Notes: generated by a model not told the origin, from the letters alone. Positions 236 to 64,000 are shown, numbered from the stretch's first letter. The stretch is DNA of 64,000 nucleotides from a bacterium (GCA_046485285.1 JAWOHE010000021.1:994-64993); one strand, 5' to 3'. Program-made: numbers and translations.

Positions 236-251
236 CGTGTCACGCGAGGAG

Positions 252-6662: not shown

Positions 6663-6690
6663 TTTACACGCCACCCGGGGGGGGTATAAT
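6663..6690 (+). promoter_or_regulatory. Strong sigma70-type promoter with no protein gene downstream
   Basis: TTTACA (6663-6668), 16-nt spacer, consensus TATAAT (6685-6690). Confidence 0.6.
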
Positions 6691-6696
6691 ACAGTG

Positions 6697-6884: not shown

Positions 6885-6898
6885 CCCGTGAGAGTTGG

Positions 6899-10582: not shown

Positions 10583-11699
10583 CTGTATCCTGTCTTCCCT
10601 CGCGCACCGCCTGCTCGAGCGCGGCCTCGGTCGCGTCGGCCGCCGCCTCCCACGTCCACTGCCGCGCCCAGTCAATCGCCTGCCGCCCGAGCCGCCCGCG
10701 CAGCTCGCCGTCGGCCAGCAACCGGCCGATCTTCCCGGCCAGGTCGGCGACGTCGCCGTATTGGTAGAACAGGCCGTTGACCCCGTCCCGCGACGAATCG
10801 ACCAGCCCGGGCGAGTCGGCGACCACCACCGGCATCCCGCAGGCATTGGCCTCCATCACGATCAGCCCCCAGCCCTCCTTCACCGAGTTCTCGACCAGCA
10901 CCGCCCCGCGCCGGTACCAGCCGACCTTCTCCTCCTCGCTCACGAATCCGGCGAAAGTCACCCGCTCGCGCAGGCCGAGCTCGTCGGTCAGCTTTTCGAG
11001 CCGCGGCCGGTCGTCGCCGGTTCCGATGACGACGACGCGGAAATCGCGGCCCCGGTCGGCGAGCAGCCGGGCGGCCCGGAGCAGGTGGTCGGTCGCCTTG
11101 TACTTCTTCAGCCGGCCGACGTGGAGCAGGACCTGCTCGCGCCGGACCGATTCGTCCGGCCTGAACCGCTCGAAATCCGTGCCCGGCGGCACGACCGCGA
11201 CCCGCTCCGGCCGGATCCCGAGCCTAACCACGTCCCGCTTCGAGCTCTCCGACAGCACCGTGAACCGTGAACCCTTGTACGCCCACGGTATCGCGCTCTC
11301 CGCCAGCCAGACGTAGGCCGCGAGCGGGAACAGCGCCTCGCGGAAGATGCTCCCCCGGAACAGGTGCATCAATATCGCCAGCACCGGCCGGTCGGTGAAC
11401 CGGGGCGAGTAGAACGGCACCTTGTTCAGGTCGTCAACAACCACGTCACAGCCGGTCTCGGCCGCGAGCCGGCCGAGGTTCCGCATCACCGCGAAATTGA
11501 AGGTCAGCGCGCCGCCCAGCCGCCGCACCCGCACGCCGTCGAGCATCTCCTCCTCCGCCGACCCGGGGAAGCGCTCGGCGAGCTGGACGACCTCGTGCCC
11601 GCGCGCGGCAAGCCGGCGGAAAATCTCCTGGAAGTAGATTTCCGCGCCGCCCGCGAGCGGGTTTCGGACACAGCGCCAGTTGACGGCAAGCACCTTCAC
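10569..11699 (-). CDS. Glycosyltransferase family 4 (GT-B, group 1)
   Basis: VKVLAVNWRCVRNPLAGGAEIYFQEIFRRLAARGHEV at the N-terminus, and GWGLIVMEANACGMPVVVADSPGLVDSSRDGVNGLFY in the C-terminal catalytic region. GTG 11699 is preferred as the start; TTG 11735 is possible. Confidence 0.8.
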   Translation of the reverse strand: MKVLAVNWRCVRNPLAGGAEIYFQEIFRRLAARGHEVVQLAERFPGSAEEEMLDGVRVRRLGGALTFNFAVMRNLGRLAAETGCDVVVDDLNKVPFYSPRFTDRPVLAILMHLFRGSIFREALFPLAAYVWLAESAIPWAYKGSRFTVLSESSKRDVVRLGIRPERVAVVPPGTDFERFRPDESVRREQVLLHVGRLKKYKATDHLLRAARLLADRGRDFRVVVIGTGDDRPRLEKLTDELGLRERVTFAGFVSEEEKVGWYRRGAVLVENSVKEGWGLIVMEANACGMPVVVADSPGLVDSSRDGVNGLFYQYGDVADLAGKIGRLLADGELRGRLGRQAIDWARQWTWEAAADATEAALEQAVREGRQDTDEQR

Positions 11700-18099: not shown

Positions 18100-18149
18100 G
18101 ACACCATAGACCCGGCGGCCGGCAGAACCCTGCGCCCGGCCGGTGTCGC

Positions 18150-18177
18150 TTGACAAGTCGACCGCCGGGCCTACCAT
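18150..18177 (+). promoter_or_regulatory. Sigma70-type promoter for the 18260 gene
   Basis: TTGACA (18150-18155), 16-nt spacer, TACCAT (18172-18177). The ~80-nt leader contains AAAGGAGG before ATG 18260. Confidence 0.5.
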
Positions 18178-18259
18178 TTCTGCGGACGCAGCGCAGAACC
18201 GTGACGCGCCCGCCCGTCCGCAGCGGCGGTCGCTGTCGCACGAAACCAAAGGAGGACTG

Positions 18260-20101
18260 ATGCTGTCAACCATCCTGACCCTGGCCATCGCGGCCGTGAC
18301 CTCGCTCACCCCCTCGATCGGCGACGTGCCGAACCCGGGGAACTGGGGTGGCGGCGGTCCCGACCAGTATGGCTACCGCTACCTCGATTCCGACACCACC
18401 GCGCCCGGCGCGCCGACCTACAACTGGAAGGATATCAAGGGTGTCGGCGAGCAGGTCCCGAACCTCGGCGACGACAACGTCATCGGCCCGTACAACATCG
18501 GCTTCGACTTCCCGTACTACTGGTACACCGTGACGAGCTTCTTCGTCGGCTCGAACGGCTACATCGCCTTCCACGACAACACCCTCGCCGCCCACGCGTT
18601 CCGGCCGGTCCCGAGCACCTACCGGCCCAACAACACCCTCGCGCCGATGATGTCCGACCTCGACCCGTCGCAGGGCGGCTCGCCCAACGGCTCGGTCTGG
18701 GTCTGGACCAACTCCGCCAACGACACCTGCATCATCCAGTACGACAGTATCCGCTTCTGGAACACCGGCGGCAACAACTCGTTCCAGATCATCCTGAGTC
18801 GGCCCGACAGCGCGATAACCTTCCAGTACAAGGAACAGTCGGGCCAGCCCTATAACGGCTGGGCGCCGGAGCAGAACCAGACCGGCATCGAGAACGTCTC
18901 GGGCGCGGTCGGCCTGAACTACCTCTCCGGCACGATCCCGTCCCAGAACATGTACCACCCCGAACTAGCGGTGCGCTTCTACCCGCCTGCGACGACGACG
19001 ATGGAGGTCCACGACGTCGGCGTCCGCAACGCGATGAACGACCGCAGCGGCGGCTTCTTCGTCGTCAACGGCCAGAGTATCCAGCCCTGGGCGGTCGTCG
19101 CGAACTTCGGCAACCAGACCGAGAGCCCGTACAAGGCCTATGTCCGCATCAAGCGGACCTCGGGCGCGGTCGTCCATATGGACTCGACCACCGCGACGAC
19201 CAACAACCCGGGAGACATCGACTCGCTGGTCTTCCCGAACACCTGGACCGCGACCCAGAACATGACCTTCATCGCCGAGTTCTACACCCGACTCACCGGC
19301 GACGTCTTCCCGCCCAATGACACCGTCAAGGTCGAGTGCCGCGTCCTCGCCCTGCCCGGCTGGCTCAGCTACGACAAGGGCACGGCGGACGCCTACTACT
19401 CGTGGAACGGCCCGGGCGGCTACGGCGCGCGCTTCGTGCCGCCGGTCTACCCGTGCAGCGTCTCGAGTATCCGGATGATGTCGCAGTCGGCCACCGGCGT
19501 CAACTGCGTCCTCGGCATCTTCGCCGACAACGGCGCGGGCGGCGGCCCCGGCGATACGCTCTACCTGGGCTCGGTCAGTGTCTCAGCCCCGCAGTGGTAC
19601 GTCCTCAACCCGCCGAGCCCGGTCGTCATCGAGGACGGCGCGTTCTTCGTCGGCGCGATGTCGGCGACCTCGTCCGACCCGAGCTTCGGGATGGACACCA
19701 TCGCCCCGATCTCCGGCCAGAGCTGGGAGTACACCGGCGTCTGGGCCCCGAGCCGCGACCTCTGGGTCCGCGAGGCGATGTTCAACGCCTCGATACTCGG
19801 CGCGACCGGCATCGAGGAGTGGGTCGGCCCTGCGCCGGTCCCCCAGCCGGTTCGGCTTGACGTCAGCCCGAACCCGTTCGGAACCACGGCCCGGCTCAAC
19901 CTCATCAACCCCCGCGGCTCCGAGGGCGCGGTCGAGGTCTATGACGCGACCGGCAGCGTCGTCCGCACGCTCGAGCTTGACCGCGGTACTGCGGTCTTCA
20001 ACGGCCGTGACGACGCCGGCCGCCTGCTCGCCGAGGGCATCTACTTCGCCCGCGCCCGGGGCGAAGGCGCGTCGGTCGCCAAGGTAGTTATCTCCCGCTG
20101 A
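18260..20101 (+). CDS. Secreted protein with T9SS/FlgD-like C-terminal sorting domain, unknown function
   Basis: ATG 18260 follows AAAGGAGG. N-terminal hydrophobic signal MLSTILTLAIAAVTSL. C-terminus VSPNPFGTTARLNLINPRGSEGAVEVYDATGSVVRTLELD...GIYFARARGEGASVAKVVISR has the T9SS C-terminal-domain pattern. Confidence 0.8.
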   Translation: MLSTILTLAIAAVTSLTPSIGDVPNPGNWGGGGPDQYGYRYLDSDTTAPGAPTYNWKDIKGVGEQVPNLGDDNVIGPYNIGFDFPYYWYTVTSFFVGSNGYIAFHDNTLAAHAFRPVPSTYRPNNTLAPMMSDLDPSQGGSPNGSVWVWTNSANDTCIIQYDSIRFWNTGGNNSFQIILSRPDSAITFQYKEQSGQPYNGWAPEQNQTGIENVSGAVGLNYLSGTIPSQNMYHPELAVRFYPPATTTMEVHDVGVRNAMNDRSGGFFVVNGQSIQPWAVVANFGNQTESPYKAYVRIKRTSGAVVHMDSTTATTNNPGDIDSLVFPNTWTATQNMTFIAEFYTRLTGDVFPPNDTVKVECRVLALPGWLSYDKGTADAYYSWNGPGGYGARFVPPVYPCSVSSIRMMSQSATGVNCVLGIFADNGAGGGPGDTLYLGSVSVSAPQWYVLNPPSPVVIEDGAFFVGAMSATSSDPSFGMDTIAPISGQSWEYTGVWAPSRDLWVREAMFNASILGATGIEEWVGPAPVPQPVRLDVSPNPFGTTARLNLINPRGSEGAVEVYDATGSVVRTLELDRGTAVFNGRDDAGRLLAEGIYFARARGEGASVAKVVISR

Positions 20102-51450: not shown

Positions 51451-52245
51451 ATGAAGATACCGGTCGACACGACGTTCGAGAACAAGGACCCCTACCGGAT
51501 CCTCGGCGTGCCGGTTGAGGCCGACCCGGCCGCCATCCGCAAGGCCTACCTCGACCTCGTCCGGAAGAACCACCCCGACCTCTTCGCCACCGACCCGACC
51601 CGGTACCTCGCCTCGACCGCGCTGATGCAGGACATCGGCGGCGCCTACGAACTGCTCAGCGACCCGGCCCGGCGCGAGCTCTGGGACCGCCAGCACCCCG
51701 CCGAACGCAAGCCTGCCCCGCGCCCGGCCGCGAAGCGGAAGGTGCATCCCGAGTCCCCGCACGTGAACCTCGTCATCCGGAAATACAACGAGTTCGTCAG
51801 GTCCCTGCGCACCCCGGCCGAACAGCGGGCTGCCGTCCGGAAAGTCAGGGCCTTCCAGGCGAGCCGGGCCGGTTACGCCTTCATCAGGAAGCTCATCGAC
51901 CGCCACTACCTTGAAGTCATCGACCGGCTCAGCCTCTGCGCACGCATCACGGAATTCGACGACGGGCTCGTCGAGATAACCTTCCTCTATCCCGGCGCGC
52001 TCGAAGTCGCGCCCGGGAATGTCTACGTCACCTACGCCTACCTCGTCCACCGGCAGAACAAGGGCAGGCTCCCGCCCGAGCCGGTCGCGCGCCGGCGGGC
52101 GCAGGTTCCTCCGCGCCCCGCTGACTATCGGCTCCGCGTGCCACAGCCGCCCCGCGAGCCCGCGCCGCCTCGCCGGGCACCGAAAAGCGTCTCGGCCCGC
52201 GTCTGGGACTGGCTGATGGCCAAGCCCGGCTCCCCCCGCCGCTGA
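51451..52245 (+). CDS. J-domain (DnaJ-like) protein
   Basis: DPYRILGVPVEADPAAIRKAYLDLVRKNHPDLF is a J domain with the HPD tripeptide. The remainder is unrecognised, with a Pro/Arg-rich tail. Confidence 0.8.
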   Translation: MKIPVDTTFENKDPYRILGVPVEADPAAIRKAYLDLVRKNHPDLFATDPTRYLASTALMQDIGGAYELLSDPARRELWDRQHPAERKPAPRPAAKRKVHPESPHVNLVIRKYNEFVRSLRTPAEQRAAVRKVRAFQASRAGYAFIRKLIDRHYLEVIDRLSLCARITEFDDGLVEITFLYPGALEVAPGNVYVTYAYLVHRQNKGRLPPEPVARRRAQVPPRPADYRLRVPQPPREPAPPRRAPKSVSARVWDWLMAKPGSPRR

Positions 52246-52252
52246 GACCACC

Positions 52253-52532
52253 GGGCCGAAGTTCATCGTTCCTGGTTCATAGTTCAGGGTTCAGAATGCA
52301 TCCTTCGTCGCTCGGGGTTCCGTTCTCTGCAGGAGCGACATCCCTGTCGCGATCCGGTTCGGCAGCCAGTCCGTCATTTCGACCAGCGTGGAGAAATCCC
52401 TCTCCGGCCCGTCAGGGCCGTGGTTCAAGGTTCCTGGTTCATAGTTCAGCGTTCAGCGCACCCCCTCGTACCGGCCTCTCTGGGCCGCTCGACCTCATCC
52501 TCTCCCCACCCACCCACCCATCTGCCCCGCGC
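52253..52532 (+). repeat. Left copy (DR-L) of a composite non-coding repeat, plus an extra heptad array and a REP-like hairpin
   Basis: 52371-52532 aligns at roughly 85% by eye with 57188-57345. Shared parts are CCGTCATTTCGACC..GTGGAGAAATCCCT, GGGCCG..GGTTCCTGGTTCA.AGTTCA..GTTCAGCG and CTCGTACCGGCC...CGCTCGACCTCATCCTCTCCCCAC...CCCCGCGCC. A second heptad array (GGGCCGAAGTTCATCGTTCCTGGTTCATAGTTCAGGGTTCAG) lies at 52253-52294. A GCGAC-ATCCCT-GTCGC hairpin lies at 52335-52350. Confidence 0.8.
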
Positions 52533-52577
52533 CGATTCCAGGGAATCGGGCCGGTCCGAGTGGGGCTGGAAAGACCG

Positions 52578-52838
52578 CTACCGATACCTGCGGCGCTCGG
52601 GTATCACCCCGCGCAAGCCGCCCTCGGGGTCAGTGAGGTCGCCCCGGTATCTCGGTATCACGTGGACGTGGGCGTGCGGGACCGCCAGCCCGGTCAGACC
52701 GGAGGCGGGACATAAAAATGCGGTTGCCGTCACCGGTGGACCCTGGTGAAACCACCGGCGCGAACAGGCCGAAAACTCCCGGCCAATTCGGTCACCGTCA
52801 CCGATAACCCAAGCATTACCCAAGCACGCGTCAACCAT
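52578..52838 (-). pseudogene. HIT-family hydrolase, N-terminally truncated or decayed
   Basis: The 86-aa ORF ends GLAVPHAHVHVIPRYRGDLTDPEGGLRGVIPERRRYR, which carries the HxHxHxx histidine triad and conserved tail. Only about 54 residues precede the triad, versus about 100 in intact HIT proteins, and the usual N-terminal strand motifs are absent. Confidence 0.5.
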
Positions 52839-52850
52839 GAAATTCTAACA

Positions 52851-52879
52851 TTGACCGTTAGGTTTTCATGGTATAGAAT
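52851..52879 (+). promoter_or_regulatory. Sigma70-type promoter abutting a start codon (leaderless candidate)
   Basis: TTGACC (52851-52856), 17-nt spacer, TAGAAT (52874-52879), then 5 nt to ATG 52885. This AT-rich patch contrasts with its surroundings. Confidence 0.6.
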
Positions 52880-52884
52880 TGCCC

Positions 52885-54024
52885 ATGGTTGACCGCAAGC
52901 TGGATATCGGACTGGTACGCACCGCACTGAAACGTAGCCGGGTTGTCGCCCTGCTCGGACCGCGCCAGTGCGGGAAGACCACTCTGGCCCGCAAGTTCGT
53001 TCCGGCCGGTGCCCTCAACTACTTCGACCTCGAAGAGCCGACCAGTTTCGCCCGGCTCAACGAACCGGAAACGGCCCTGCGGCCGCTCAAGGGACTGGTG
53101 GTCATAGACGAAATCCAGCGTCGTCCGGAGCTGCTCCCGCTTCTGCGCGTACTGGCGGACCGACGGCCACTCCCGGCGCGCTTCCTCATCCTGGGCAGCG
53201 CCTCGCCCGAGTTGTTGCGCCGGTCGTCTGAAACCCTGGCCGGCCGACTGGAAACAGTCCCTCTGGCCGGATTCCGGCTGGCCGACCTCGGCAACGCGGC
53301 CCGAAACCGGCACTGGGTGCGGGGCGGCTTCCCCCCGGCATACACCGCCCGGACCGAAACCGACTCGCTGGCCTGGCGGCAGCAGTTCATCCAGGCCTTC
53401 CTTGAACGCGACATCCCCCAGTTGGGAGTCGTCATCCCGGCGGTAGCGCTCCGACGTTTCTGGAGCATGACTGCCCATTACCACGGCCAGACCTGGAACG
53501 GAGCTGAACTCGCCCGTGCGCTGGCGGTCAGTGAGCCGACCGTACGGCGCTACCTCGACCTGTTGACCGGGGTATACATGGTTCGGCAACTGCCGCCCTG
53601 GTTCGAGAACGTCGGCAAGCGACAGGTCAAAGCGCCGAAGGTCTATGTCCGCGACAGTGGCCTGCTTCACGCCCTGCTCGGCGTAGGCGCCCGGCGCGAG
53701 CTCGAATCGCACCCCAAAGTCGGTGCCTCCTGGGAGGGCTACGCGGTGGAAGAAATCCTCAAGGCACTGAACCCGGACCAGGCCTACTACTGGGCCACGC
53801 ACCAAGGGGCGGAACTCGACCTGCTGCTCTTCAAACGCGGTCGCCGCATCGGGGTAGAATGCAAGCGTACTGACGCGCCCGTGCTTACGTCCTCGATGCG
53901 CACTGCTCTGTCCGACCTGAAGCTGAGCGAACTGCTCGTCGTCTACCCCGGCGAGAGGTCCTATAGGTTGGCCGACAAAGTCAGGGTCCTGCCGCTCACC
54001 CGACTCCTGACAACTAACGCCTGA
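52885..54024 (+). CDS. AAA-type ATPase with DUF4143 domain
   Basis: Walker A LLGPRQCGKTTLA, Walker B-like VVIDEIQ, and a DUF4143-like C-terminal half (YLDLLTGVYMVRQLPPWFENVGKRQVKAPKVYVRDSGLLHALLG...GASWEGYAVEE). ATG 52885 is preferred over the track's TTG 52879 because of the promoter. Confidence 0.82.
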   Translation: MVDRKLDIGLVRTALKRSRVVALLGPRQCGKTTLARKFVPAGALNYFDLEEPTSFARLNEPETALRPLKGLVVIDEIQRRPELLPLLRVLADRRPLPARFLILGSASPELLRRSSETLAGRLETVPLAGFRLADLGNAARNRHWVRGGFPPAYTARTETDSLAWRQQFIQAFLERDIPQLGVVIPAVALRRFWSMTAHYHGQTWNGAELARALAVSEPTVRRYLDLLTGVYMVRQLPPWFENVGKRQVKAPKVYVRDSGLLHALLGVGARRELESHPKVGASWEGYAVEEILKALNPDQAYYWATHQGAELDLLLFKRGRRIGVECKRTDAPVLTSSMRTALSDLKLSELLVVYPGERSYRLADKVRVLPLTRLLTTNA

Positions 54025-54029
54025 AACTG

Positions 54030-54165
54030 ACCGGTCCTGCTCACGACCGGGACGTCGGCGAGCGTCGTCCTGCGCTTCGCCCTCGGCGGCAGGTGGCAAA
54101 CCCGCCCCCAGCCCGGTCAGGCCGGACGCGAGAAAGAGAATGCGGCTGCTGTCACGGAATCCCGG
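54030..54165 (-). pseudogene. Relic of a second HIT-family gene
   Basis: 54108-54157 (CCAGCCCGGTCAGGCCGGACGCGAGAAAGAGAATGCGGCTGCTGTCACGG) is homologous to 52685-52736 inside the HIT gene. It translates on the minus strand as ...RILFLASGLTGLGAG..., compare TATAFLCPASGLTGLAV. The histidine-triad segment is deleted. Confidence 0.5.
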
Positions 54166-54170
54166 GGCGG

Positions 54171-55463
54171 TCAGCGGAGCGCCTGACGCTCCCACTCGGA
54201 CTTCACCCTGGCGGAGCAGGCGGCAACGCTGCGATGGAATCCCCGGTCAGCCAGCTCCGCCTGCAGACCTTCGCTCGCCTGCTTCAGCGGAGCGAGGCGC
54301 CGCACTCGGCGGTAGCGGTCATACCACTTCACCCAGCCTGCCGCCAGCTTCTGCTCGGCGGCGGTCCAGTGCGGATTGCGCGGCCCGCGCAGACCCCGTT
54401 GGTGGGCCAGATTCAGGATCGCCATGTGAATCGTGTCGAGCGTATGGCTGGGGAGGCGGCGCAGTTTCAGCGGGCCGGTTCTTGCCAGGCGCGCAACCCG
54501 GCGCCCAATCGCGGCCAGGCACTGCTCGGCCGCGGCCCGCCAGTGCGGCAGTGCGCCGTTGTGAACCATCATCGCATACCGCTCAACCAGCCGCTCCTCG
54601 GTCTTCGTCAGCCAACTGTGACTGCGCGGCAACCCGGTGCGCGTCGCCTCGGTGCGAAGCGCGAACCGCACCGCCTTGTACGTCCGCGAGCCGCCCAGCT
54701 CGCGAAAACAGGCCTGCGCCGCGTCGTCGGAAAACTTGTGGCGTCCCTCGAACAACAGTCGCAGGTGACGGTTCAGCGCCCGGCGTTCGGCGGGTGTCCA
54801 CTCGTGCTTGAGCTTGGGCAGGCCCAGCTCGTGGGCGGCCGTGTACAACATCCAGTAGATGCCGTAGAACGGCCGCGGCCGCGGGTCGGTGCGGGCCAGC
54901 TCGCGCCGGCACGCCCTGGCGGCCTCGCGCATGCTCGGGTAGCGGCCGGCGAGATACGCCCGGGCATACCGGCGGATGGCCTTCATCTCCTGCAACCGGC
55001 GGCGGTGGAACCGCGCGCCCACGCCGGCGGCCCGCAACGCCTTGCTGAGACGCGCGTTCACCGTGCGTGAGGAACGGGCGGGCAACCGCGGCCCGTCGCG
55101 CTGACTCCGGCGCAGCGCTCCCAGCTCGCGCACACACCCCCGCACCGCGCCGGGCACATCCAGCGACGGATTGTCCGCGAACTTCGCGACCCAGCGCCGG
55201 ATGACGTCCAACTCGGCAGGCCGCCAGCGATAGCCGGGTGCGGACACCCCGGCCGCCAGCCTTCGCTCCCCGAGCTTGTACCTGACCGCAGACACCGAAC
55301 GGCGGGCACGACCGCCACTCGAGACCGCCAGCGCCGCGTGGCATGCCCGCGCCGCCTCGCTGCTGGAGACGTACCGGCCCTGCCCGAGCGCCCGGACGAA
55401 ACGGTCAACGACCGCAAGCTCGCGCGCCGTCCAGCCGTCCCGACGCTTCACTCCGGCCCTCAT
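54171..55463 (-). CDS. Hypothetical protein built from six tandem SANT/Myb-like three-helix repeats
   Basis: 430 aa, Arg-rich. Six ~65-70-aa repeats open with W(T/R)xxE: WTARELAVVDRFV, WRPAELDVIRRWV, (R)LQEMKAIRRYA, WTPAERRALNRHL, WLTKTEERLVERY, WTAAEQKLAAGWV. Each is followed by an AAxxCxxEL-like helix and an R(S/T)xxAVxxxL-like helix. Confidence 0.65.
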   Translation of the reverse strand: MRAGVKRRDGWTARELAVVDRFVRALGQGRYVSSSEAARACHAALAVSSGGRARRSVSAVRYKLGERRLAAGVSAPGYRWRPAELDVIRRWVAKFADNPSLDVPGAVRGCVRELGALRRSQRDGPRLPARSSRTVNARLSKALRAAGVGARFHRRRLQEMKAIRRYARAYLAGRYPSMREAARACRRELARTDPRPRPFYGIYWMLYTAAHELGLPKLKHEWTPAERRALNRHLRLLFEGRHKFSDDAAQACFRELGGSRTYKAVRFALRTEATRTGLPRSHSWLTKTEERLVERYAMMVHNGALPHWRAAAEQCLAAIGRRVARLARTGPLKLRRLPSHTLDTIHMAILNLAHQRGLRGPRNPHWTAAEQKLAAGWVKWYDRYRRVRRLAPLKQASEGLQAELADRGFHRSVAACSARVKSEWERQALR

Positions 55464-55564
55464 CTCCGCAGGGCCTCGCGGCCACGCCCGGTATCAATAT
55501 TCACCACGTCCAACTCTTACCCGATTCCCTCCCGGTGTCAACCCGGCCCGCTACGAACTCAACC

Positions 55565-55708
55565 CCTGCCGCGGCCGGAAGGCCCCGGAGAATGCGGTTG
55601 CCGTCACCGCTATCAAGAAACAGGTGGTTGTCCCTGATTCCGTTCTGATTCCTCCTTCTCCAGCGCGAGGATGTCGGCGCGGATTTCTTCGAGCGTGCGG
55701 AGCGGCGG
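55565..55708 (-). pseudogene. Relics: second hsdM C-terminal tail (55613-55708) and third HIT-like fragment (55565-55610)
   Basis: The minus strand translates PPLRTLEEIRADILALEKEESERNQGQPPVS*, and 55654-55699 is a 46-bp copy (1 mismatch) of 56825-56870. Immediately downstream, GCGGTGACGGCAACCGCATTCTCCGGGGCCTTCCGGCC matches the HIT-gene segment CCGGTGACGGCAACCGCATTTTTATGTCCCGCCTCCGGTC. Confidence 0.55.
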
Positions 55709-55731
55709 AGTTACTACGCTTACTAATACGC

Positions 55732-56793
55732 TCACTTGAGGGTAGTACGCTTACTCCGGACCTGCCGCCAGCGGGCGGCCGGGCCGCGGCCGCGGCAGAT
55801 CACTTCGCCGGACCTCTTCATCTCGGCCAGAACCAGCCGAATCCACTCGCGTCCTACGCCGGGACACGCCTGCTCGATGTCAGCCAGGCGGAACTCGCCG
55901 GCGCGAGCCCGAACGGCACGCAGTACGAGTTCACGCTTCGCGCCCCGCGGCGCCTGGACCTGTCCCACCCGCTCCTCGAACTCCCGATAGGCCGACTTCA
56001 GGGTGTAGAGCACGAAGTTGACGTAGTGCCAGGGGTTGTTTTTGCCCTGGTGCCAGCCCTCGGAACTCAGCTCCAGCGTCTCGTAGTAGCGGTCTTTGTT
56101 CTGCTCAACCAGTCGTTCCAGGCTGATGTACCGGCCGACCTCGTATCCGAGGTGATAACACTGAAGCAGCATGAGCAGCCGCGAGACCCGGCCGTTGCCG
56201 TCGCGGAACGGGTGGATGCACAGGAAGTCGAGGTTGAAACCGGCCAGGGCGATTACCGGATGAACCGTGCGTTCGCGACGCAGGTCTCGCCAGAGGTTGA
56301 CCATCTCTTTACTGTCGGCCGCGATCCTCTCCGGGGCGACGGTGCGGAACCGGACGCGCTCGCGCCCGTCCGCATAGCGCTGGATGATGTCGCAGGGTTT
56401 GGTACGGTACTTGCCGGCGTCCCATATCTGGCCGCGGGCCAGCCGGTGAAGACGCTTGATGACCGCTTCGGTGACCGCCAGTCGGCCGCCGCGTTCATGC
56501 ACGTCTTTGAGTGCGTCGCGGTAGCCGCGAACTTCTTCCTCATCGCGGTCACGCAGGAGCGAGCGGCCGATGATGACTGGTCGGATGCGGGCCGGGGCGA
56601 TGCTGACACCCTCGATGCGATTGGACGATACTGCACTCTCAATCAGTGCGTGCTCACGTAGAACCTTGAGTAGTTGCGGCGACTGGCGCGTGAACAGCTC
56701 CTGCCTGCCTTGCGACTTGTCGAGGTCGGCAAGATACCAGGCGGTGACTGCGGGGATAGACTCCAGACCGGCGGCAAACCGGCGCAGGGTCAC
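55732..56793 (-). CDS. Fic family protein (AMPylase-type), with N-terminal inhibitory-helix motif
   Basis: Fic core motif IHPFRDGNGRVSRLL (HxFx(D/E)GNGRxxR). N-terminal SNRIEG fits the (S/T)xxxE(G/N) auto-inhibition motif. The C-terminus is winged-helix-like. GTG start overlaps the stop of the hsdM fragment (GTGA). Confidence 0.88.
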   Translation of the reverse strand: MTLRRFAAGLESIPAVTAWYLADLDKSQGRQELFTRQSPQLLKVLREHALIESAVSSNRIEGVSIAPARIRPVIIGRSLLRDRDEEEVRGYRDALKDVHERGGRLAVTEAVIKRLHRLARGQIWDAGKYRTKPCDIIQRYADGRERVRFRTVAPERIAADSKEMVNLWRDLRRERTVHPVIALAGFNLDFLCIHPFRDGNGRVSRLLMLLQCYHLGYEVGRYISLERLVEQNKDRYYETLELSSEGWHQGKNNPWHYVNFVLYTLKSAYREFEERVGQVQAPRGAKRELVLRAVRARAGEFRLADIEQACPGVGREWIRLVLAEMKRSGEVICRGRGPAARWRQVRSKRTTLK

Positions 56794-57005
56794 TCCAGCA
56801 CCTCCTTCAGCAACCCTTCCGTCTCCTTCTCCAGCGCGAGGATGTCGGCGCGGATCTCTTCGAGCGTGCGCAGTTCCTGCGGCTTGTAGAAGTAGCGGTT
56901 GAAGCTGATTTCGTAGCCAATCTTGGTCTTGCTTTCGTCAATCCACGCATCCTTTGCGTACGGCAGCACCTCGCGCCGGATGAACGCCTCGACCCCGCCT
57001 TCCAC
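56790..57005 (-). pseudogene. 3'-terminal fragment of a type I R-M methyltransferase gene (hsdM)
   Basis: EGGVEAFIRREVLPYAKDAWIDESKTKIGYEISFNRYFYKPQELRTLEEIRADILALEKETEGLLKEVLE is the characteristic HsdM C-terminal tail. An in-frame TGA lies about 10 codons upstream of the GTG, and no methyltransferase core is present upstream. Confidence 0.7.
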
Positions 57006-57187
57006 CAGCAGGGGCTTGTGCGGCGCGCACCTCGTGCTTCTTGTGGACCCTCAGCGTTCCGAACAGGTGGACGAGCGAGTCCATCGTGTACGGGACCTGG
57101 CGCAGAACCTGCGCCCTGTCCGAGCCGCGAGAGTGACTTCCCATACAGAAGTAGTACCTAAAAGCCTCAGGATGTCAAAAGCGCCGC

Positions 57188-57345
57188 CCGTCATTTCGAC
57201 CGAAGTGGAGAAATCCCTTTCCGGCCCGCCAGGGCCGAAGTTTAAGGTTCCTGGTTCACAGTTCATCGTTCAGCGCTCCCCTCGTACCGGCCCATCTCCG
57301 CCGCTCGACCTCATCCTCTCCCCACTCGCCCATCCTCCCCGCGCC
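57188..57345 (+). repeat. Right copy (DR-R) of the composite non-coding repeat
   Basis: Direct-orientation partner of 52371-52532 (see DR-L). Contains the GTCATTTCGACC..GGAGAAATCCC unit, a 5x heptad array AGTTTAA-GGTTCCT-GGTTCAC-AGTTCAT-CGTTCAG (about 57240-57275) and the conserved tail. It ends 22 bp before the -35 box of the PLD-SNF2 operon. Confidence 0.8.
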
Positions 57346-57412: not shown

Positions 57413-60400
57413 ATGGCAGGCAAACTACCGACCATTATCGACAACCAGGGCGAAGTCACGCTCCGGGACGCCGTGGCACAGATCGCAGCCTCGACGAAGG
57501 AGCTCGACATCGCTACCGGGTTCTTCGAGCTGGGCGCGCTTCTCTCGCTCGACGGCGAATGGCAGCGCATCGGCAACGTTCGGATACTCCTCGGCGACCC
57601 GGCCAGCAGGAAAACGCGCCGCGAGTTGGTTGAGGCGTTCCGCCGCGGAAACGAAGATGCCATCGAGCAGTGCAAGGAACGGGACGACACGCTAACCGGC
57701 ATCGAAGCCGTCCGACAGGCACTCGACACCAGAAAGATTGCGGTTCGCGTCTACACCCGGGAGCGGTTCCACGCCAAGAGCTACATCTTCCACACCGAGC
57801 CGCCCAACCCGGTTGACTTCGCGGTCGTCGGCAGCAGCAACTTCACGCGGCCCGGGCTGGTCAAGAACGTCGAGCTCAACCTGCTGACCACCGACCAGGT
57901 CCACATCGAGAAGCTGAGCGAGTGGTTCGCCGGAATGTGGAACGACGCCGAGCAGCGCCTGCTCAACGAGGAAGCACTCGAAATCATCGCCCGCCATACC
58001 CGCGAGTACACTCCGTTCGAGGTCTACGCCAAAGCGCTCTACGAGTTCTTCGCCGGCAGGCAGAAGTCATCGGACGATTGGGAGCGGACCGAAAGCGCCG
58101 TCTACCCGCGCCTGTCCAAGTACCAGCAGGACGGCTATCACACGGCTCTGCGCATGGCCGAGAACTGGGGAGGAGCGCTCGTCTGCGACGGCGTCGGCCT
58201 CGGCAAGACCTACATCGGCCTGATGCTGCTGGAACGGCTCATCCACGACAAGAACCGGGTCCTGCTCATCGTGCCCAAGTCAGCCGAGGACAGCGTCTGG
58301 CTTCGACACATCCGCCCTTCGACAGCGAATCCCGACCCGATTCTCAAGCACCTGCACCGCTCCGTGTTTGGCCAGCTCTTCCGTGTCAAGCGTCACACCG
58401 ACTTCGGACGGCCCGGCACGATCCCCGAAGCCGAACTGCAGGAGCTTGAGCGGGACACCGACGCCATAATCGTCGATGAGGCCCATCACTTTCGGACTCC
58501 CTCGGCCTATCGCAGCAAGATGCTCAAGCGACTGGCGAAGGGAAAGCGGGTATTCCTGCTCACCGCCACGCCCATCAACAACCGCCTGCTTGACCTCTAC
58601 GAGCTCATCAGCTGCTTCGCGCCTGAGAAGGACCACTTCCGGAGCATCGCCATCCAGGACTACCGCCGGCTGTTCTCCAGACCCGACCGGCAGTTCGAGG
58701 AAGCCATCCGGCTCGGAGACTGGCGCGACCTGGCCGAGGTCGACAAGTTTCTGAGCGAGCAGCAGCTCTTCCGGCAGATCCTCATCCAGCGTAGCCGGCG
58801 CTACGTCAAGGAGTCCGAACAGGGCCGGGCCAACGCACCGATCTTCCCGGTGCGCCAGCGGCCGCGCGTCATCCGCTACTCCCTGCGGAAGGTGTACGCG
58901 ACCATCTATGACGAGATCAAGCAGGCGTTCGACCGCGAGGCGCCGTTCCTCAACCTCGCCCTCTACTGCACCGAGGCATACCGGAAGGGCGAGCCGGCCG
59001 AGAAGAAGCTCCTCGAACAGAAGCAGGTCGTCGGACTCATCCGGACGCTCCTGCTCAAGCGGCTGGAAAGCTCCTACAAGGCCTTTGAGGCGTCGGTCGA
59101 AGACCTGCTGGCAAAGATGGCCGAGTTCGTCCGCGCCTACGACCCCGACAAGTACGAAGGCTGGGTCAAAGCCAACGGCCGCTACTGGAGCCGCATCAAG
59201 GACCACCAGCACGCGCGGCTGGAGCTGTCCGACACCGAGGCCGAGGAAGAGGACCAGGAGGAAAATCTCCTGCCCGAGAGCCTGCAGATCGCGACGGCCG
59301 AGTACCATATGGACCGGCTCCTCGGCGACGTCATAGACGATATGAACGTCCTGCTCGAGTTCCTCGCCAAGATTGCGAAGCGGTTCTACACCACCGACGA
59401 CCGTGAGGACCCGGCGAGGGATGACAAGCTCCAGAAACTGCTCCTCCTGCTGACTTCGCCGCCCGACAAGGGCGAGCCGGACATCCGCGGCAGGAAGGTG
59501 GTCATCTTCTCCGAGTTCCGCGACACGGCCCGCTACCTGCTCCGGCAGCTCCGGGACGCTGGCCTGAAGGACGTCGAGGAAATGGACAGCACCCGGAAGA
59601 TGAACCGCGAGGAGGTCATCAAGCGGTTCGCGCCCCACTACAACTGCGAACCCGGTCAGGTCAGCGAGTACCTCGACAAGCCCATCAACATCCTGGTCTC
59701 GACCGACGTGCTCTCCGAGGGGCTCAACCTCCAGGACGCCTCGCTGATGGTCAACTACGACCTGCACTGGAACCCGGTGCGCCTGATGCAGCGCATCGGC
59801 CGCGTCGACCGGCGGATGGACGAGGCAATCGAGCGGCGGCTCAAGCGGCCGCGCCAGTTGGCCGGCAAGGTCTTCTTCTGGAACTTCCTGCCCCCGAAGG
59901 AACTCGAGGAGATCCTCGGGCTGTTCCGCCGCGTCACCGGCAAGGTACTTCGCATCAACGCCGCGCTCGGCATCGAGGGCGCTCTGCTCACGCCCGACGA
60001 CCCGGAGATGACGCTCAAGGAGTTCAACGAAGCCTACGAGGGCCGGGAAAGCGTCGAGGAGCAGATGCGACGCGAACTGGAGCGGGTCGAGCGGGAGCTG
60101 CCCGAGCTCTACGCGGAACTGGCCGACCTGCCGCGCCGGGTCTTCTCCGGCCGGGTAAGGGCGAGCCGAGTGCCGCTCAAGCCAGGGGTCTTCGCCGCCT
60201 ACCGAGTCTGGTCCGACCCGGATGCGAGGACATCCGACGTCCACTGGTACTACCGGGAACGCGGGAGCGGCGCCATCACCGAGGGCCTCGAGGAAATCTG
60301 GAAGACGGTGCGCTGCGAACAGGCCGAGCCGAGGGTGGTCAAGCTAGGCCCGAAGGGCCTGTCGCCGGAGCACGAGGCCATCGAAACCCACCGCGTCCGC

Positions 60401-60472
60401 AAGCTGATGCGCGACCGCGGCCTGCCGCTCTCGGTCAAGCCCGTGCTTGCCTGCTGGCTGGAGATTGCGTGA
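57413..60472 (+). CDS. PLD-nuclease-domain / SNF2-family helicase fusion protein
   Basis: 1019 aa. N-terminal HKD motif RFHAKSYIFH...FAVVGSSNFTRPGL. SNF2/DEAH core: CDGVGLGKTY (I), IIVDEAHHFR (II), FLLTATPINN (III), VSTDVLSEGLNLQ (V), DLHWNPVRLMQRIGRVDR (VI). Confidence 0.9.
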   Translation: MAGKLPTIIDNQGEVTLRDAVAQIAASTKELDIATGFFELGALLSLDGEWQRIGNVRILLGDPASRKTRRELVEAFRRGNEDAIEQCKERDDTLTGIEAVRQALDTRKIAVRVYTRERFHAKSYIFHTEPPNPVDFAVVGSSNFTRPGLVKNVELNLLTTDQVHIEKLSEWFAGMWNDAEQRLLNEEALEIIARHTREYTPFEVYAKALYEFFAGRQKSSDDWERTESAVYPRLSKYQQDGYHTALRMAENWGGALVCDGVGLGKTYIGLMLLERLIHDKNRVLLIVPKSAEDSVWLRHIRPSTANPDPILKHLHRSVFGQLFRVKRHTDFGRPGTIPEAELQELERDTDAIIVDEAHHFRTPSAYRSKMLKRLAKGKRVFLLTATPINNRLLDLYELISCFAPEKDHFRSIAIQDYRRLFSRPDRQFEEAIRLGDWRDLAEVDKFLSEQQLFRQILIQRSRRYVKESEQGRANAPIFPVRQRPRVIRYSLRKVYATIYDEIKQAFDREAPFLNLALYCTEAYRKGEPAEKKLLEQKQVVGLIRTLLLKRLESSYKAFEASVEDLLAKMAEFVRAYDPDKYEGWVKANGRYWSRIKDHQHARLELSDTEAEEEDQEENLLPESLQIATAEYHMDRLLGDVIDDMNVLLEFLAKIAKRFYTTDDREDPARDDKLQKLLLLLTSPPDKGEPDIRGRKVVIFSEFRDTARYLLRQLRDAGLKDVEEMDSTRKMNREEVIKRFAPHYNCEPGQVSEYLDKPINILVSTDVLSEGLNLQDASLMVNYDLHWNPVRLMQRIGRVDRRMDEAIERRLKRPRQLAGKVFFWNFLPPKELEEILGLFRRVTGKVLRINAALGIEGALLTPDDPEMTLKEFNEAYEGRESVEEQMRRELERVERELPELYAELADLPRRVFSGRVRASRVPLKPGVFAAYRVWSDPDARTSDVHWYYRERGSGAITEGLEEIWKTVRCEQAEPRVVKLGPKGLSPEHEAIETHRVRKLMRDRGLPLSVKPVLACWLEIA

Positions 60473-61299
60473 CCTCTGACCGATCGGTCGGACCCGGCCA
60501 ATCCGACCGATTGCCCGGCGTCAAGCGCCTCCGCCCATCCGGTGGCTACCGGCAGTTGCGGACCTTCCACGTCGCCACCGTCATCTACGACGCCACCGTC
60601 GCGTTCTGCGAGCGGTTCGTGGACCGGCAGAGCCGCACCCGGGACCAGATGGTGCAAGCCGCGCGCTCCGGCCGTCAGAACATCGCCGAGGGCAGTCGGG
60701 CCTCGGCCTCGTCCAGCCAGACCGAGCTCCGGCTGGTCAGCGTCGCCCGGGCCAGCCTCGACGAACTCCTTCTCGACTACGAAGACTTCCTGCGCCAGCG
60801 CGGCAAGCGCCAATGGGCCAAAGACGACCCCGAAGCCCGGGCGGTGCGGGAAGTCGGCAGGCGGCATCAGACCGATCGGTCAGATCGGACCGATCAGTCC
60901 GATTCCTCCCTTTACGCCCCTTGGCTCACCGCCGACGACCCGGCGGTCGTCGCCAACGCGGTCATCTGCCTGATTCACCAGGCCAACTACCTCCTCGACC
61001 GGCAGATTGCCGGGCTTGAGCGCGGCTTCGTCAAGGAGGGCGGCTACAGCGAGCAACTCGCCGCGGCCCGCATCGCCGAGCGGGCAAAGCATCAGTCCGA
61101 TCGGTCGGATCGGACCGATCGGTCCGATTCCTCTCCTTCCGCCCCGTTCTGCCCCCTCTGCGGCAGGCCAATGGCCCTGCGCACGGCCCGGAGAGGCGCA
61201 CTGCCCGGCTCGCAGTTCTGGGGCTGTACCGGCTACCCCGACTGCCGCAAGACACTGCCATTAGACGGATCAGTCGGATCCGACCGCTCCGTCCGATAA
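60469..61299 (+). CDS. Four-helix-bundle (23S rRNA-intervening-sequence protein family) protein fused to a topoisomerase-type C4 zinc ribbon
   Basis: GTG overlaps the upstream TGA (GTGA). YRQLRTFHVATVIYDATVAFCERF...MVQAARSGRQNIAEGS...ARASLDELLLDYEDFL is the 4HB family. ICLIHQANYLLDRQIAGLERGFVKEGGYSEQL is the suffix region. CPLCGRPMALRTARRGALPGSQFWGCTGYPDC is the zinc ribbon. Domains are separated by S/D/R/T-rich linkers. Confidence 0.8.
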   Translation: MTSDRSVGPGQSDRLPGVKRLRPSGGYRQLRTFHVATVIYDATVAFCERFVDRQSRTRDQMVQAARSGRQNIAEGSRASASSSQTELRLVSVARASLDELLLDYEDFLRQRGKRQWAKDDPEARAVREVGRRHQTDRSDRTDQSDSSLYAPWLTADDPAVVANAVICLIHQANYLLDRQIAGLERGFVKEGGYSEQLAAARIAERAKHQSDRSDRTDRSDSSPSAPFCPLCGRPMALRTARRGALPGSQFWGCTGYPDCRKTLPLDGSVGSDRSVR

Positions 61300-61303: not shown

Positions 61304-64000
61304 ATGCCCAACCCCTCCCGCCTCGAAGACGCGCTAAGAGCGGCCCGCGACTTCGAGTCCTTCGCGCAGGGCCTGCTCCACGGCGCGCTCAAGTGGCCGA
61401 TTCCGGAGGAGGCGGCACGACCCTTCGAGGTCGGCTACGAGTGGAGCGAGAACGAGGTCGGAACCGACCGCACCAGCCACAAGGCCCGGGCCTTCGAGCT
61501 GATGCTTCTGCCCCGGGAGCAACAACCCTGGGGCATCTTCCTGCTCGAGTTCCACGACAGGCGCGTCTTCGACACGCGCGGGTTCGCGACTCCGCTCCGC
61601 GCGGTCTTGCGGCGGCTGGTCGCCGGCCAGCGCAAGGACCCACACCTGCCGTCGTGGAAGCTCGACAATATCCTCTTCATCTGCACCCACGACTACCACC
61701 AGTTCGTGTTCGCGATGTTTCGCGACACCTTCCGGACCGGCAAGGTCAGCGAGGCCCGGCTGGCAAGCTTCGGCTGGCACCAGGGCGAGCCCTGCCGGAC
61801 CGCAATCCAGCACAACCTGCCCCACCTCAACTGGCCGTCCGAGCCGGAGGACAAGGAGGCGTGGGCAAAGCAGTGGGCCGAAGCGTTCAACAAGGAACCG
61901 CTCACCCGCAAGTTCTTCAAGCAGTTCGACTCGGTGCTGGAGCTCATCAAGGCCGACCTTGAGAAGCTCGGCAAGCTGCCTTCGGCCGATGCCTACTCCA
62001 AGGCCCAGCTTCTGCTCGAACGGCTCATCTTCCTCTACTTCGTCCAGAACCGGGGCTGGCTCGACCAGCAGGCGAACTTCCTGCGCGACGGATTCGAACC
62101 GCACAAGAACCGACCCGACAGTCATAGCTACTATGAGGAGTTCCTTGAGCCGCTGTTCTGGTCGCTCAGCTCGCCCGGACATTCTCAGTTGCGCCGGAAC
62201 GAGGCGGTGCCGTTCCTCAACGGCGGGCTGTTCAACGACGACGAGTTTGAACCCTCGCCCCGGCGCAGAAAAGACAACCCGGCCCTGCCGATTCGTAACG
62301 CGACCTTTGCGAAGGTGTTCGACGACCTGCTCGAAGCCTTCAACTTCACCGTCCGCGAGGATACCCCGCTCAACCAGGAAGTCGCGGTTGACCCTGAGAT
62401 GCTCGGCAAGGTATTTGAGAGCATCGTGCTTCACGCCGAGGCCGCGGATGAAACCGCGTCCGCGCCCGACAAGCGCAAGGAAACCGGCTCGTTCTATACC
62501 CCGCGCATCGTCGTCCACTTCATCTGCCGGGAGGTGCTGTACCAGTGGCTCCTGCCCCGGCTGAAAGGCGACAACTGGCCCGCCCGCCTGCGGCGATTGG
62601 TCGGATTGGACGGATCCGACGGATTGGACCAAGAAGAACTGAAGACCCTCAAGTCCTGCCTCTCGCCCGAAGAAGCCTCGGCCCTGCTGGAGTTGGTCAA
62701 GGCCCTGCGCTGCTGCGACCCTGCGGTCGGCTCGGGTGCGTTCATGATTGGCCTGCTCCACGAGCTCACCAACCTCCGTCGCCTGCTCCAGGCCGTTGCC
62801 AACGGCTACATCGACCCCTTGCGCAAAGACGGCGCGAAATGGCTCCACGAGACCAAGGCCGACATCATCCAGAACAACCTGTTCGGGGTGGACATCCAGC
62901 AACAGGCCATCGAAATCTGCATGCTCCGGCTCTGGCTCAGCCTTGTCGTGGACTACGACCTCGGGCTCGACCCGTTCGCCGCGGACCGGAAGGCGTTTCT
63001 TGCCGCGCTCAAGGAAGTTTCGCAACTGCCCAACCTCGAGATGAACTTCAAGCGCGGCGACAGCCTCCACGACCACATCTGCGGGGTGCCGGTCCGAATC
63101 ATCCCCGGGAAGGAACACCGGCACCAGAAGCAGTTCGACGCCATTCACCGGCTCGGCGCGAAACTGCACAAGGCGAAGTCCTGGGACTACAAGCGCAAGC
63201 TCAGGCTTGATATTCTTAAACACCGGCTGGAGGTCAGCGAGCTGGTGATTGCCGATGAGCTCAAGCTCCTCCGCCAGAAAGACTCGGTCCTGACCGGTAT
63301 GTTCGGCGAGGCCGGGTCCGATGCCGACCGGCGTCGGCGCTTCGCCCACGAAACCGGGCAACTGGAAGAAGCGCTTGAGGGAATCCGGGCCGCGCAGAAG
63401 ACGCGCGACTGGCTGGAAGGCCGGCCTCACGAACACAACTACCAGCAGAAGCTCCGCGAGCTCGAGGGCGCGAGCTTTGACGCGCCGTTCAACTTTGCCT
63501 GGCGGATTGATTTCCCGCAGGTCTTCTATCCCGGCGTTTCTTCTCCCTCTCCCTTGAAGGGAGAGGGTCGGGGTGAGGGTGGCTTCGACATCTTCGTCGG
63601 CAACCCGCCGTTTGTCACCGCCCGGAGAAAAGAACAGCGCGAGCGCTGGCGAGAACGCTGGCAGCCGTACTGCCACGGCAAGTATCATCTGCTCGTGCCC
63701 TTTTTCCCGCTCGCGGCCGAACTGCTCAAACCCGGGGGCCAGCTTGGCTACATCGTATCCAACGCCTTTGCCAAACGCGAGTTCGGCAAACCGCTGGTCG
63801 AGAAATTCCTGCCCACCACCGACCTGCAGAAGGTTGTGGACTGCTCCGGCCTGATGTTCCCGGGCCACGGCACCCGACCTGCCTTGTCTTCAGTCGAAAT
63901 GCCAAGCCATCACCGAAAACCCCGGTCCGGGTCGTAGCAACCCTGCCCGGTGGTGGTGACCTCCGCACCCCGCCCGAGGAATCACCGCTCTGGGCAACGC
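61304..64000 (+). CDS. Large N6-adenine DNA methyltransferase, Eco57I/PglX/DrmMI-like (apparent frameshift near 63873; continues past the window end)
   Basis: N-domain LLERLIFLYFVQNRGWL and VPFLNGGLFN. FYTPRIVVHFI. Motif I CCDPAVGSGAFMIGLL. LFGVDIQQQAIEICMLRLWLSL. Motif IV FDIFVGNPPFV. The annotated frame stops at 63937, but the frame starting at 63871 stays open to 64000 with sensible sequence (HPTCLVFSRNAKPSPKTPVRVVATLPGGGDL...). Confidence 0.85.

Follow-up and report, generated by a model that had tools for sequence, protein, structure and literature searches.

Mosaic repeats, probably NIME-like, at the cassette junctions of a bacterial defence island

Introduction

Repetitive extragenic palindromes (REPs) of the CGTC type carry CGTC or TGTC at one end and have a stem of 8-9 bp whose first pairs are A-T, a loop of 4-5 nt or of variable length and an unpaired tail of a few nucleotides (Di Nocera, De Gregorio and Rocco 2013, PMC3733652). 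They occur mostly as head-to-head dimers, are found in several phyla without a dedicated transposase, and include dRS3 of Neisseria and RPE-4/6 of Rickettsia. Neisserial intergenic mosaic elements (NIMEs), arrays in which dRS3 flanks repeat sequence (RS) units of 50-150 bp, have been proposed as recombination substrates, and a phage recombinase targets dRS3 (Bentley et al. 2007, PMC1797815). Here we describe two direct repeats of ~160 bp that carry a palindrome of this super-family and lie at 52371-52532 and 57188-57345 of a 64,000-nt stretch of bacterial DNA (GCA_046485285.1 JAWOHE010000021.1:994-64993; hereafter the window). A first-pass annotation of the window had read these repeats as the att-like or recombinogenic boundaries of a decayed integration or recombination hotspot.

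Two further kinds of repeat resemble parts of these elements. REPINs, associated with RAYT (REP-associated tyrosine transposase) genes, are likewise small, dispersed and intergenic palindromes, often joined as inverted doublets that form a longer hairpin (Bertels and Rainey 2011, PMC3116915); they differ in having a GTAG rather than a CGTC head, and the copies described here are single units in direct orientation. Intergenic heptamer repeats have been reported from Beggiatoaceae, Cyanobacteria and Bacteroidetes (TAACTGA; MacGregor 2015, PMC4679880).

The components found in the window are of known kinds, namely a CGTC-type REP in a NIME-like mosaic and heptamer repeats, set in a defence island. 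On balance, we consider it probable that the repeats are NIME-like mosaic intergenic repeats marking the cassette junctions of an island built by recombination, and not att sites. Host sequence was covered by the window only, which belongs to a 65,377-bp contig of a metagenome-assembled genome, and relatives by individual contigs and loci (L numbers).

Anatomy of the composite repeats

The repeat copies and the palindrome beside them are as follows.

52371-52532, plus strand: left composite repeat, made up of a REP (52371-52404), a GC hairpin (52405-52420), a heptamer array (52421-52458) and a C-rich tail (52459-52532)
57188-57345, plus strand: right composite repeat, made up of a REP (57188-57221), a GC hairpin (57222-57237), a heptamer array (57238-57274) and a C-rich tail (57275-57345)
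52252-52298, plus strand: truncated third copy, comprising the 3' half of the GC hairpin (GGGCCGAAGTT) and an array of five GTTCA heptamers
52533-52546, strand not applicable: small palindrome GATTCC-AG-GGAATC directly 3' of the left repeat, similar to a REP or dRS3 stem, with no CGTC tag (read by eye)

Global alignment of the two full copies gave 139 identical columns out of 163 (85%, the value that had been estimated by eye), with six gap columns and a longest identical run of 26 nt. A repeat search of the window resolved the pair into two ungapped blocks of 94 and 58 nt, each 88% identical, and the nhmmer match between them had an E-value of ~1e-28. Both copies hold, in the same order, CCGTCATTTCGACC-NNNN-TGGAGAAATCCC, the GC hairpin CGGCCC-N4-GGGCCG, five GTTCA heptads at 7-nt spacing and a C-rich tail running to CCCCGCGCC, which bears out the earlier outline of a sequence unit followed by five heptads and a conserved tail. 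Neither repeat motif was matched by chance in 100 shuffles. The truncated third copy is new, being absent from the first-pass annotation; it begins 7 nt past the stop codon of a J-domain gene (51451-52245), and over 52252-52294 it is identical to the left copy at 37 of 42 positions and to the right copy at 36 of 42. All three heptamer arrays of the window share one orientation.

Several other identities were considered for the composite. Rfam returned no family, either for the window at gathering thresholds or for 52200-52600 at E<=10, and folding of the whole repeat on both strands revealed no excess stability (z = -0.3, +0.7 and -0.5), for which reason a structured RNA spanning the 160 nt was dropped. 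A miniature inverted-repeat transposable element was rejected, as the composite opens with CCGTCATTTCG and closes with CCCCGCGCC, having no terminal inverted repeats and no flanking target duplication. Nor is the repeat a coding sequence, given that insert lengths are not multiples of three and that short open reading frames (ORFs) fall in differing frames between the copies. Literature searches with strings of the repeat sequence retrieved primers only.

Relationship of the palindromic unit to CGTC-type REPs

The first ~50 nt of each full copy is a CGTC-tagged REP palindrome and a member of the known dispersed super-family, since its anatomy matches the published description (PMC3733652): it carries (C)CGTC at its end, its stem begins with A-T pairs, the loop measures 4 nt and the tail reads CCC. 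The tag reads CCGTC-ATTTCG in both island copies, and GGTC, CCGTC and TGTC in copies near a tRNA gene. The stem, which begins with complementary A-T residues and corresponds to the 8-9 bp of the description, is formed imperfectly by ATTTC/GAAAT plus CC/GG around a small internal loop. The loops AGCG and GAAG lie within the range of 4-5 nt, and the tail is CCC(T), as against the CCA described. Four full and two partial units were identified in the window, all of them intergenic, including the following group.

1-232, mixed strands: tRNA-adjacent REP units, with full units at 79-120 (plus) and 160-201 (minus) forming an inverted dimer, a half unit at 221-232 (minus) and a unit at 1-31 (minus) that runs off the window

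This group, detected by a low-stringency search of the window, lies by a tRNA-Met gene (251-325, minus strand), the sole Rfam-confirmed tRNA gene of the window.

The wider distribution of the unit was surveyed by scanning one genome per species with the pattern GTCATTTCGACC-N(2-32)-TGGAGAAATCC. The exact 12+11-nt core was retrieved at no fewer than 118 loci (L001-L118) in many phyla, often with several copies per genome. The matches listed, nearly all of which come from metagenome-assembled genomes, include Clostridia, Bacteroidia, Patescibacteria, Alphaproteobacteria, Gammaproteobacteria, Planctomycetota, Acidobacteriota, Chloroflexota and others. The conserved halves are separated by 3-4 nt or by a hairpin, variable in sequence, of 12-32 nt (overall insert 3-32 nt), and among the matches listed many units are followed by an inverted partner. 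Base pairing was assessed in 96 units of the same loci whose sequence the search pattern had not dictated. In 78 of these all three inner positions of the stem were fully complementary, compared with a mean of 25 and a maximum of 37 upon random re-pairing, and the stem triplets covaried through at least seven different pair combinations.

The units thus share with the described CGTC REPs the CGTC/TGTC tag, the A-T stem start, the extragenic location, frequent inverted dimers (here by tRNA-Met), occurrence in several phyla and the lack of a known dedicated transposase, and they broadly resemble them in the short or variable loop and the C-rich unpaired tail. They differ in the imperfect stem (5 bp, an internal loop and 2-3 bp), in the long hairpin insert of many members, and in a range that exceeds the five phyla on record, taking in Patescibacteria, Clostridia, Bacteroidia, Planctomycetota, Acidobacteriota and others. 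A further difference of the island copies is that they are monomers fused to an extension of ~110 nt.

No protein family was enriched in the neighbourhoods of the REP hits when 1636 ORFs were clustered, and neither the window nor the surroundings of any REP hit showed a RAYT gene. A search of 15 REP-core loci against Rfam yielded only an unrelated FMN riboswitch. Readings of the core as a ribozyme or a K-turn were abandoned, the conserved cores being missing by eye and Rfam being silent.

Units of this family also occur in relatives. In L122 (18512-19346), from the nearest relative, a ParE/antitoxin module has a REP copy on either side, both in direct orientation and the second preceded by a half unit, and this layout of REP copies around an accessory module is that of the window; homology of these copies to those of the window extends over only ~50 nt, through CCCTTTCCGGCCCG. 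A more distant relative, L105, harbours four REP units within 400 nt, with a heptamer-rich spacer.

Heptamer arrays and four-helix-bundle genes

The GTTCA array belongs to a widespread class of intergenic 7-mer arrays. As in the cyanobacterial short tandemly repeated repetitive (STRR) sequences and the TAACTGA repeats (PMC4679880), tandem 7-mers in numbers of 2-6, sometimes many more, lie between genes in distant phyla, with no function assigned; those of the window differ in their 7-mer, GTTCA-NN, and in being fused to a REP. Arrays of ~4-5 heptamers were common across REP-bearing loci generally. In L126, where the J-domain protein is 55% identical, a composite of ~95 nt containing (ATTGCAG)x5 and (AGCCGTG)x3 is present in direct orientation on both sides of the J-domain gene (9889-9985 and 10931-11020; the same is seen in L127), and at least 10 heptamer arrays occur in 20.8 kb, mostly 40-200 nt upstream of start codons.

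A metagenome scan with the array pattern retrieved three unrelated contigs (L119-L121) with GC contents of 45-61%. The first has forward heptamers followed by their reverse complement, giving a long hairpin. In L120, arrays flank a gene for a 129-aa four-helix-bundle protein (TIGR02436, 7e-35) situated between BrxC and a PglXI-type methyltransferase, and in L121 they flank a truncated gene of the same family. In L137, which holds the closest Fic relative of the window, a heptamer hairpin precedes Fic, which is followed by a (GTGAANN)4 array and a partial ORF that by eye resembles the start of a four-helix-bundle gene. Plasmid records gave a consistent picture, in that all six four-helix-bundle genes retrieved (L138-L143) have heptamer arrays ~5-130 nt from both ends; in five of the six the two arrays are reverse complements of each other, and in the sixth they are direct. 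The 7-mer varies from locus to locus, that of a Riemerella plasmid, GGTTTAA/GGTTCAA, being close to that of the window. Most of the array-bounded genes sit within operons, namely cas6-cas4 of type I-D (twice), parA-like/parB and HlyD-like/ABC transporter, along with the BrxC/PglXI case.

A four-helix-bundle gene with its flanking arrays thus looks like an intervening cassette, and no description of heptamer arrays bracketing such genes was found in the searchable literature. Arrays in inverted pairs around four-helix-bundle genes also set these loci apart from the STRR and TAACTGA repeats. This regular bracketing, mostly within operons, is the most interesting by-product of the analysis, outside the finding itself, and may bear on how small genes invade operons. 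The arrays of the window do not have the form of such a cassette: they point in the same direction, and a profile search detected no four-helix-bundle remnant in 52-57.4 kb, a span that includes the DNA between the repeats. The sole four-helix-bundle gene of the window (60469-61299) has no heptamer flanks.

As a separate observation, the frame of the PglXI-type methyltransferase in L120 (2640-2975) stays open through the heptamer arrays, which translate as GVPGSQFSVQGSGNQEPGTQNQE. It may be that the arrays form part of the annotated coding region, or that the methyltransferase really begins after them.

Extent and cassette structure of the island

Genes were chosen by GC content at third codon positions (GC3) and then compared with family libraries. 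The features between the repeats, and those that follow the right repeat, are listed below.

52581-52844, minus strand: C-terminal fragment of a HIT-like gene (VPHAHVHVIPRY), a pseudogene remnant in a stop-to-stop frame (NitFhit, E 0.004; HxHxH motif)
52879-54024, plus strand: intact ATPase with AAA_14 and DUF4143 domains (Pfam 7.6e-46; PADLOC candidate defence gene PDC-S01)
54105-54160, minus strand: short HIT-like fragment, 81% identical over 36 nt to 52682-52717, with a frame shift
54171-55463, minus strand: intact 430-aa protein with six repeats of ~60-75 aa starting W-T-x-x-E
55573-55612, minus strand: third short HIT-like DNA fragment, 90% identical over 20 nt to 54136-54155 and 75% over 40 nt to 52767-52806
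55652-55702, minus strand: 51-nt duplicate of an hsdM 3' end (encoding RTLEEIRADILALEKE), 96% identical to 56823-56873 and 8 nt outside the Fic cassette boundary
55710-56792, minus strand: Fic cassette, the span of nucleotide homology to the locus of the closest relative
55732-56793, minus strand: Fic ORF, SoFic-like (Pfam 1.8e-14; SoFic 5e-28)
56793-57050, minus strand: hsdM C-terminal tail of 86 codons, matching type I M-subunit C-termini at 63% identity over 82 aa
57367-57394, plus strand: promoter-like TTGACT-16-TATTCT of the PLD-SNF2 operon, with a -35 box conserved in relatives
57413-60472, plus strand: PLD-SNF2 helicase-nuclease (PADLOC HKD+Snf2, 5e-60)
60469-61299, plus strand: protein with a four-helix bundle, a suffix and a Zn-ribbon (TIGR04258, 1e-20; TIGR02436, 30 bits)
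61304 onward, plus strand: Eco57I/MmeI-type methyltransferase, with a frame shift near 63856-63886

The foreign region starts at ~52246 and runs past the right repeat to the end of the window, so that the horizontally acquired island measures at least 11.7 kb and has the right repeat as a junction in its interior. From 52.3 kb onward GC3 falls, with values of 0.79-0.88 in every gene from 52.9 kb to the window end, compared with 0.90-0.97 in core genes. PADLOC assigned the families PDC-S01, SoFic, HKD+Snf2 and a type IIG-like methyltransferase within it; as a cluster of known or candidate defence genes with atypical composition, variable between relatives, the region qualifies as a defence island. 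The best relatives elsewhere of Fic (89% identical) and PLD-SNF2 (84%), both from other samples, are closer than the best relative of the adjacent J-domain core protein, which is 65% identical. Clustering of PADLOC families, lowered GC3, absence from a relative and pseudogene debris are all features of defence islands with single-gene cassettes and type I restriction-modification remnants. Nothing essential distinguishes the present island from these, although the bracketing of each cassette by duplicated fragments is unusually tidy.

Most of the gene content recorded in the first-pass annotation was recovered. The DUF4143 ATPase does have a promoter-like site of its own, TTGACC-17-TAGAAT (52851-52879), which ends at its start codon; the Fic gene is matched by both Pfam and SoFic models; and the two hsdM tails correspond to the 86-codon tail and the 51-nt duplicate, beside which no methyltransferase core, hsdS or hsdR was found. 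In plasmid contexts, Fic homologues showed no link to hsdM. As had been stated, there is no integrase or recombinase gene: all ORFs from 52.5 to 64 kb are assigned, and the intergenic gaps, of at most 362 nt, are too short to leave room for one.

Other parts of that description needed amendment. The truncated HIT gene exists as a fragment, its HIT identity being weakly supported: all of its top PDB hits are HIT proteins, and it has no Pfam or NCBIfam hit. Its two relics are DNA repeats of 20-52 nt of that fragment. The six repeats of the 430-aa protein stand, and their assignment as Myb-like does not, as a Myb/SANT identity found no match in Pfam, NCBIfam, PHROG or PDB profile searches. A library of 1.84 billion proteins contains 205 representative clusters related to this protein (E<=1e-3), which thus represents a real, small and uncharacterised family, whose members range from ~300 to 990 aa, presumably owing to differences in repeat number. 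Whilst the content is accessory, mosaic and partly decayed, as proposed, the term 'graveyard' overstates the decay because three genes are full length.

The order of these parts is informative. Read on the minus strand, the right repeat is followed by the hsdM tail, Fic, the hsdM fragment, a HIT-like fragment, the six-repeat gene, a further HIT-like fragment, the DUF4143 gene (on the opposite strand), the HIT-like remnant and the left repeat. Homology to the closest Fic locus is limited to 55710-56792, that is the ORF and ~20 nt, with nothing outside it, and the hsdM tail and its 51-nt duplicate sit just outside the two ends of this cassette. Each intact gene is in fact bordered by short duplicated leftovers, either of the hsdM 3' end or of the HIT-like gene. 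The occurrence of such fragments wherever two genes meet suggests recurrent recombination. It is compatible with related islands having recombined step by step, or with insertions at the conserved ends of genes, and not with a single integration event.

Beyond the right repeat, the module of PLD-SNF2, four-helix-bundle/Zn-ribbon and methyltransferase genes recurs in three relatives (L130-L132) with protein identities of 70-84%. Nucleotide homology there starts only at ~57410; the -35 box is kept, and the repeat is absent upstream in all three. In the window the methyltransferase ORF from 61304 stops at 63937, and compared with the 1488-aa relative in L132 its frame changes at 63856-63886, reflecting either a pseudogene or an assembly error.

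The L130 locus (5947-7074), which is of the same lineage with ~75% nucleotide identity in core genes, was also of note in its own right. Its PLD-SNF2 system has as neighbours a tyrosine integrase and tRNA-Met truncated to a 5' part, with an incomplete duplicate of the PLD-SNF2 N-terminus and another four-helix-bundle/Zn-ribbon gene close by. In the window this tRNA-Met is intact, and REP units come after it.

At the left end, the contigs of the nearest relative (L122-L125) lack both island and repeat: there the J-domain gene is followed, at a distance of 25 nt, by a convergent gene for an M28 peptidase. In more distant J-domain relatives synteny is not conserved, and these were hence uninformative with respect to an empty site.

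Origin and possible role of the repeats

The proposed history is that a mosaic repeat, composed of a CGTC-tagged REP, a small GC hairpin, five heptamers in tandem and a C-rich spacer, came to sit at the module junctions of an island that begins right after the J-domain stop codon. The 4.8 kb between the full copies would have been assembled piecewise by recombination and would hold three intact single-gene cassettes (the DUF4143 ATPase, the six-repeat protein and Fic). The repeats would have been carried along passively, or would have offered homology or hairpin substrates favouring the gain, loss and exchange of cassettes; as direct repeats of 160 bp with 85% identity, they could mediate rare RecA-dependent loss of the 4.8 kb. 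Judged from sequence, they may have had such a recombination-substrate role, or that of a 'recombinogenic boundary' in the looser sense, and on the present analysis they would act at most as passive substrates for cassette exchange. The description of the region as an integration or recombination hotspot thus retains its accessory, variable and defence-rich character, as judged by GC3, PADLOC families and absence in a relative.

The closest parallel is provided by the NIMEs, in which a REP of the same super-family is likewise joined to units of ~50-150 bp in a tandem or mosaic arrangement beside variable genes, and for which the proposed role is that of a recombination substrate or recombinase target promoting exchange of neighbouring genes (PMC1797815). 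The left junction has a comparable order, with a spacer-like unit, a REP, a spacer unit and a small palindrome in succession; its units, like the four REPs of L105, are too few to be called an array. The differences are that two or three units stand here in place of long arrays, that the spacer unit contains a heptamer array, that no recombinase or phage targeting the REP is known here, and that NIMEs have been reported as Neisseria-specific.

Some observations weigh against this interpretation. Heptamer-array and tail probes detected no further copy of the composite in metagenome or viral collections, and inside the window the full composite occurs at island junctions only and never in the 52 kb of core sequence, a placement that would also be expected of an att-like or cassette-linked element specific to junctions. 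The first-pass annotation had itself raised the prospect of a very abundant intergenic repeat unconnected with variable regions. That description suits the parts of the composite, with the REP core at 118 or more loci and the heptamer class widespread, and does not suit the full composite as placed in the window. It had also anticipated relatives lacking the segment and retaining a single repeat copy. In the nearest relative the segment is indeed absent after the J-domain gene, and so is any repeat copy; with 65% amino acid identity in the flanking J-domain protein, this relative is too distant to represent an empty site.

It is rather unlikely that the copies instead arose in place, as by-products of unequal crossing-over or replication slippage that duplicated a junction module (REP, heptamers and tail) during cassette addition, and do not belong to a genome-wide family. 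The truncated and left copies do stand in tandem, 162 nt apart, the ~110-nt extension past the REP is common only to the window copies and is not shared with L122, the hsdM (51 nt) and HIT-like (20-52 nt) fragments at other junctions have local duplicates too, and the collection scans gave no further copy. The 15% divergence between the copies nevertheless implies a duplication that is old relative to cassettes with relatives elsewhere of 84-89% identity, and REP-plus-heptamer mosaics occur at unrelated places in relatives, as would fit a dispersed family.

A more ambitious version of the NIME-like interpretation appears unlikely to us, namely that the composite is a NIME-like recombination module outside Neisseria that marks or promotes the exchange of single defence cassettes, its heptamer part deriving from an undescribed class of intervening cassette (four-helix-bundle genes of the Avd/23S intervening-sequence type, bounded by inverted arrays, that insert into bacteriophage exclusion (BREX), type I-D CRISPR-Cas and parAB operons).

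That the repeats are attL and attR of a 4.8-kb integrative element, which has decayed and lost its integrase, we hold to be very unlikely. Their direct orientation and 26-nt identical run, the accessory content between them and the coincidence of the left end with the end of synteny to the relative would all agree with it, and the L130 island, with an integrase next to a truncated tRNA-Met, indicates that integrase-borne islands exist in this lineage. However, the 4.8 kb offer neither a recombinase gene nor room for one, and the right repeat lies inside the foreign region, leaving only the left end to fit a boundary role. A truncated third copy is found 120 nt upstream of the left one; the repeats are 160 bp in length, 85% identical and composed of two dispersed repeat classes, without a sharply defined common core; no repeat copy follows the J-domain gene in the relative; and relatives of PLD-SNF2 are homologous only from ~57410, without the repeat. 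The att-like boundaries of the first-pass annotation are accordingly not upheld, in view of the dispersed REP and heptamer classes, the foreign DNA past the right repeat, the third copy and the missing recombinase.

A cis-acting regulatory or RNA element, such as a heptamer binding platform, a 5' leader or an insulator for the adjacent operon, is highly improbable: although 21-22 nt separate the end of the right copy from the TTGACT -35 box at 57367 (in keeping with the 22 bp first noted), the L126 arrays are located mostly upstream of start codons and heptamer direct repeats in that position have been proposed as regulator binding sites in Beggiatoaceae (PMC4679880), the PLD-SNF2 operons of three relatives keep the promoter without the repeat, the left copy faces an opposite-strand pseudogene with the nearest same-strand gene 347 nt away behind its own promoter-like site, and there is no Rfam match or folding excess.

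If the NIME-like repeats merely mark junctions, the locus is one more defence island with REP-type debris, and its practical value is as a warning that accessory genes can be framed by direct repeats that are not att sites. Should modules of REP and heptamers indeed promote the exchange of cassettes, the NIME idea would extend from Neisseria to an uncultured, high-GC lineage with a type IX secretion signal, and the modules would provide a sequence handle for locating cassette junctions in defence islands.

Other features of the window

ARAGORN called a 100-nt tRNA-Val(gac) at 16635-16734 on the minus strand, inside a long ORF (15652-18309); the call is probably false because Rfam was silent at its gathering threshold. 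Within the four-helix-bundle/Zn-ribbon gene, 9-nt tandem repeats in opposite orientation at 60866-60903 and 61091-61128 encode linkers rich in SDR/TDR, and a further 9-nt array is present at 62595-62629 in the methyltransferase gene.

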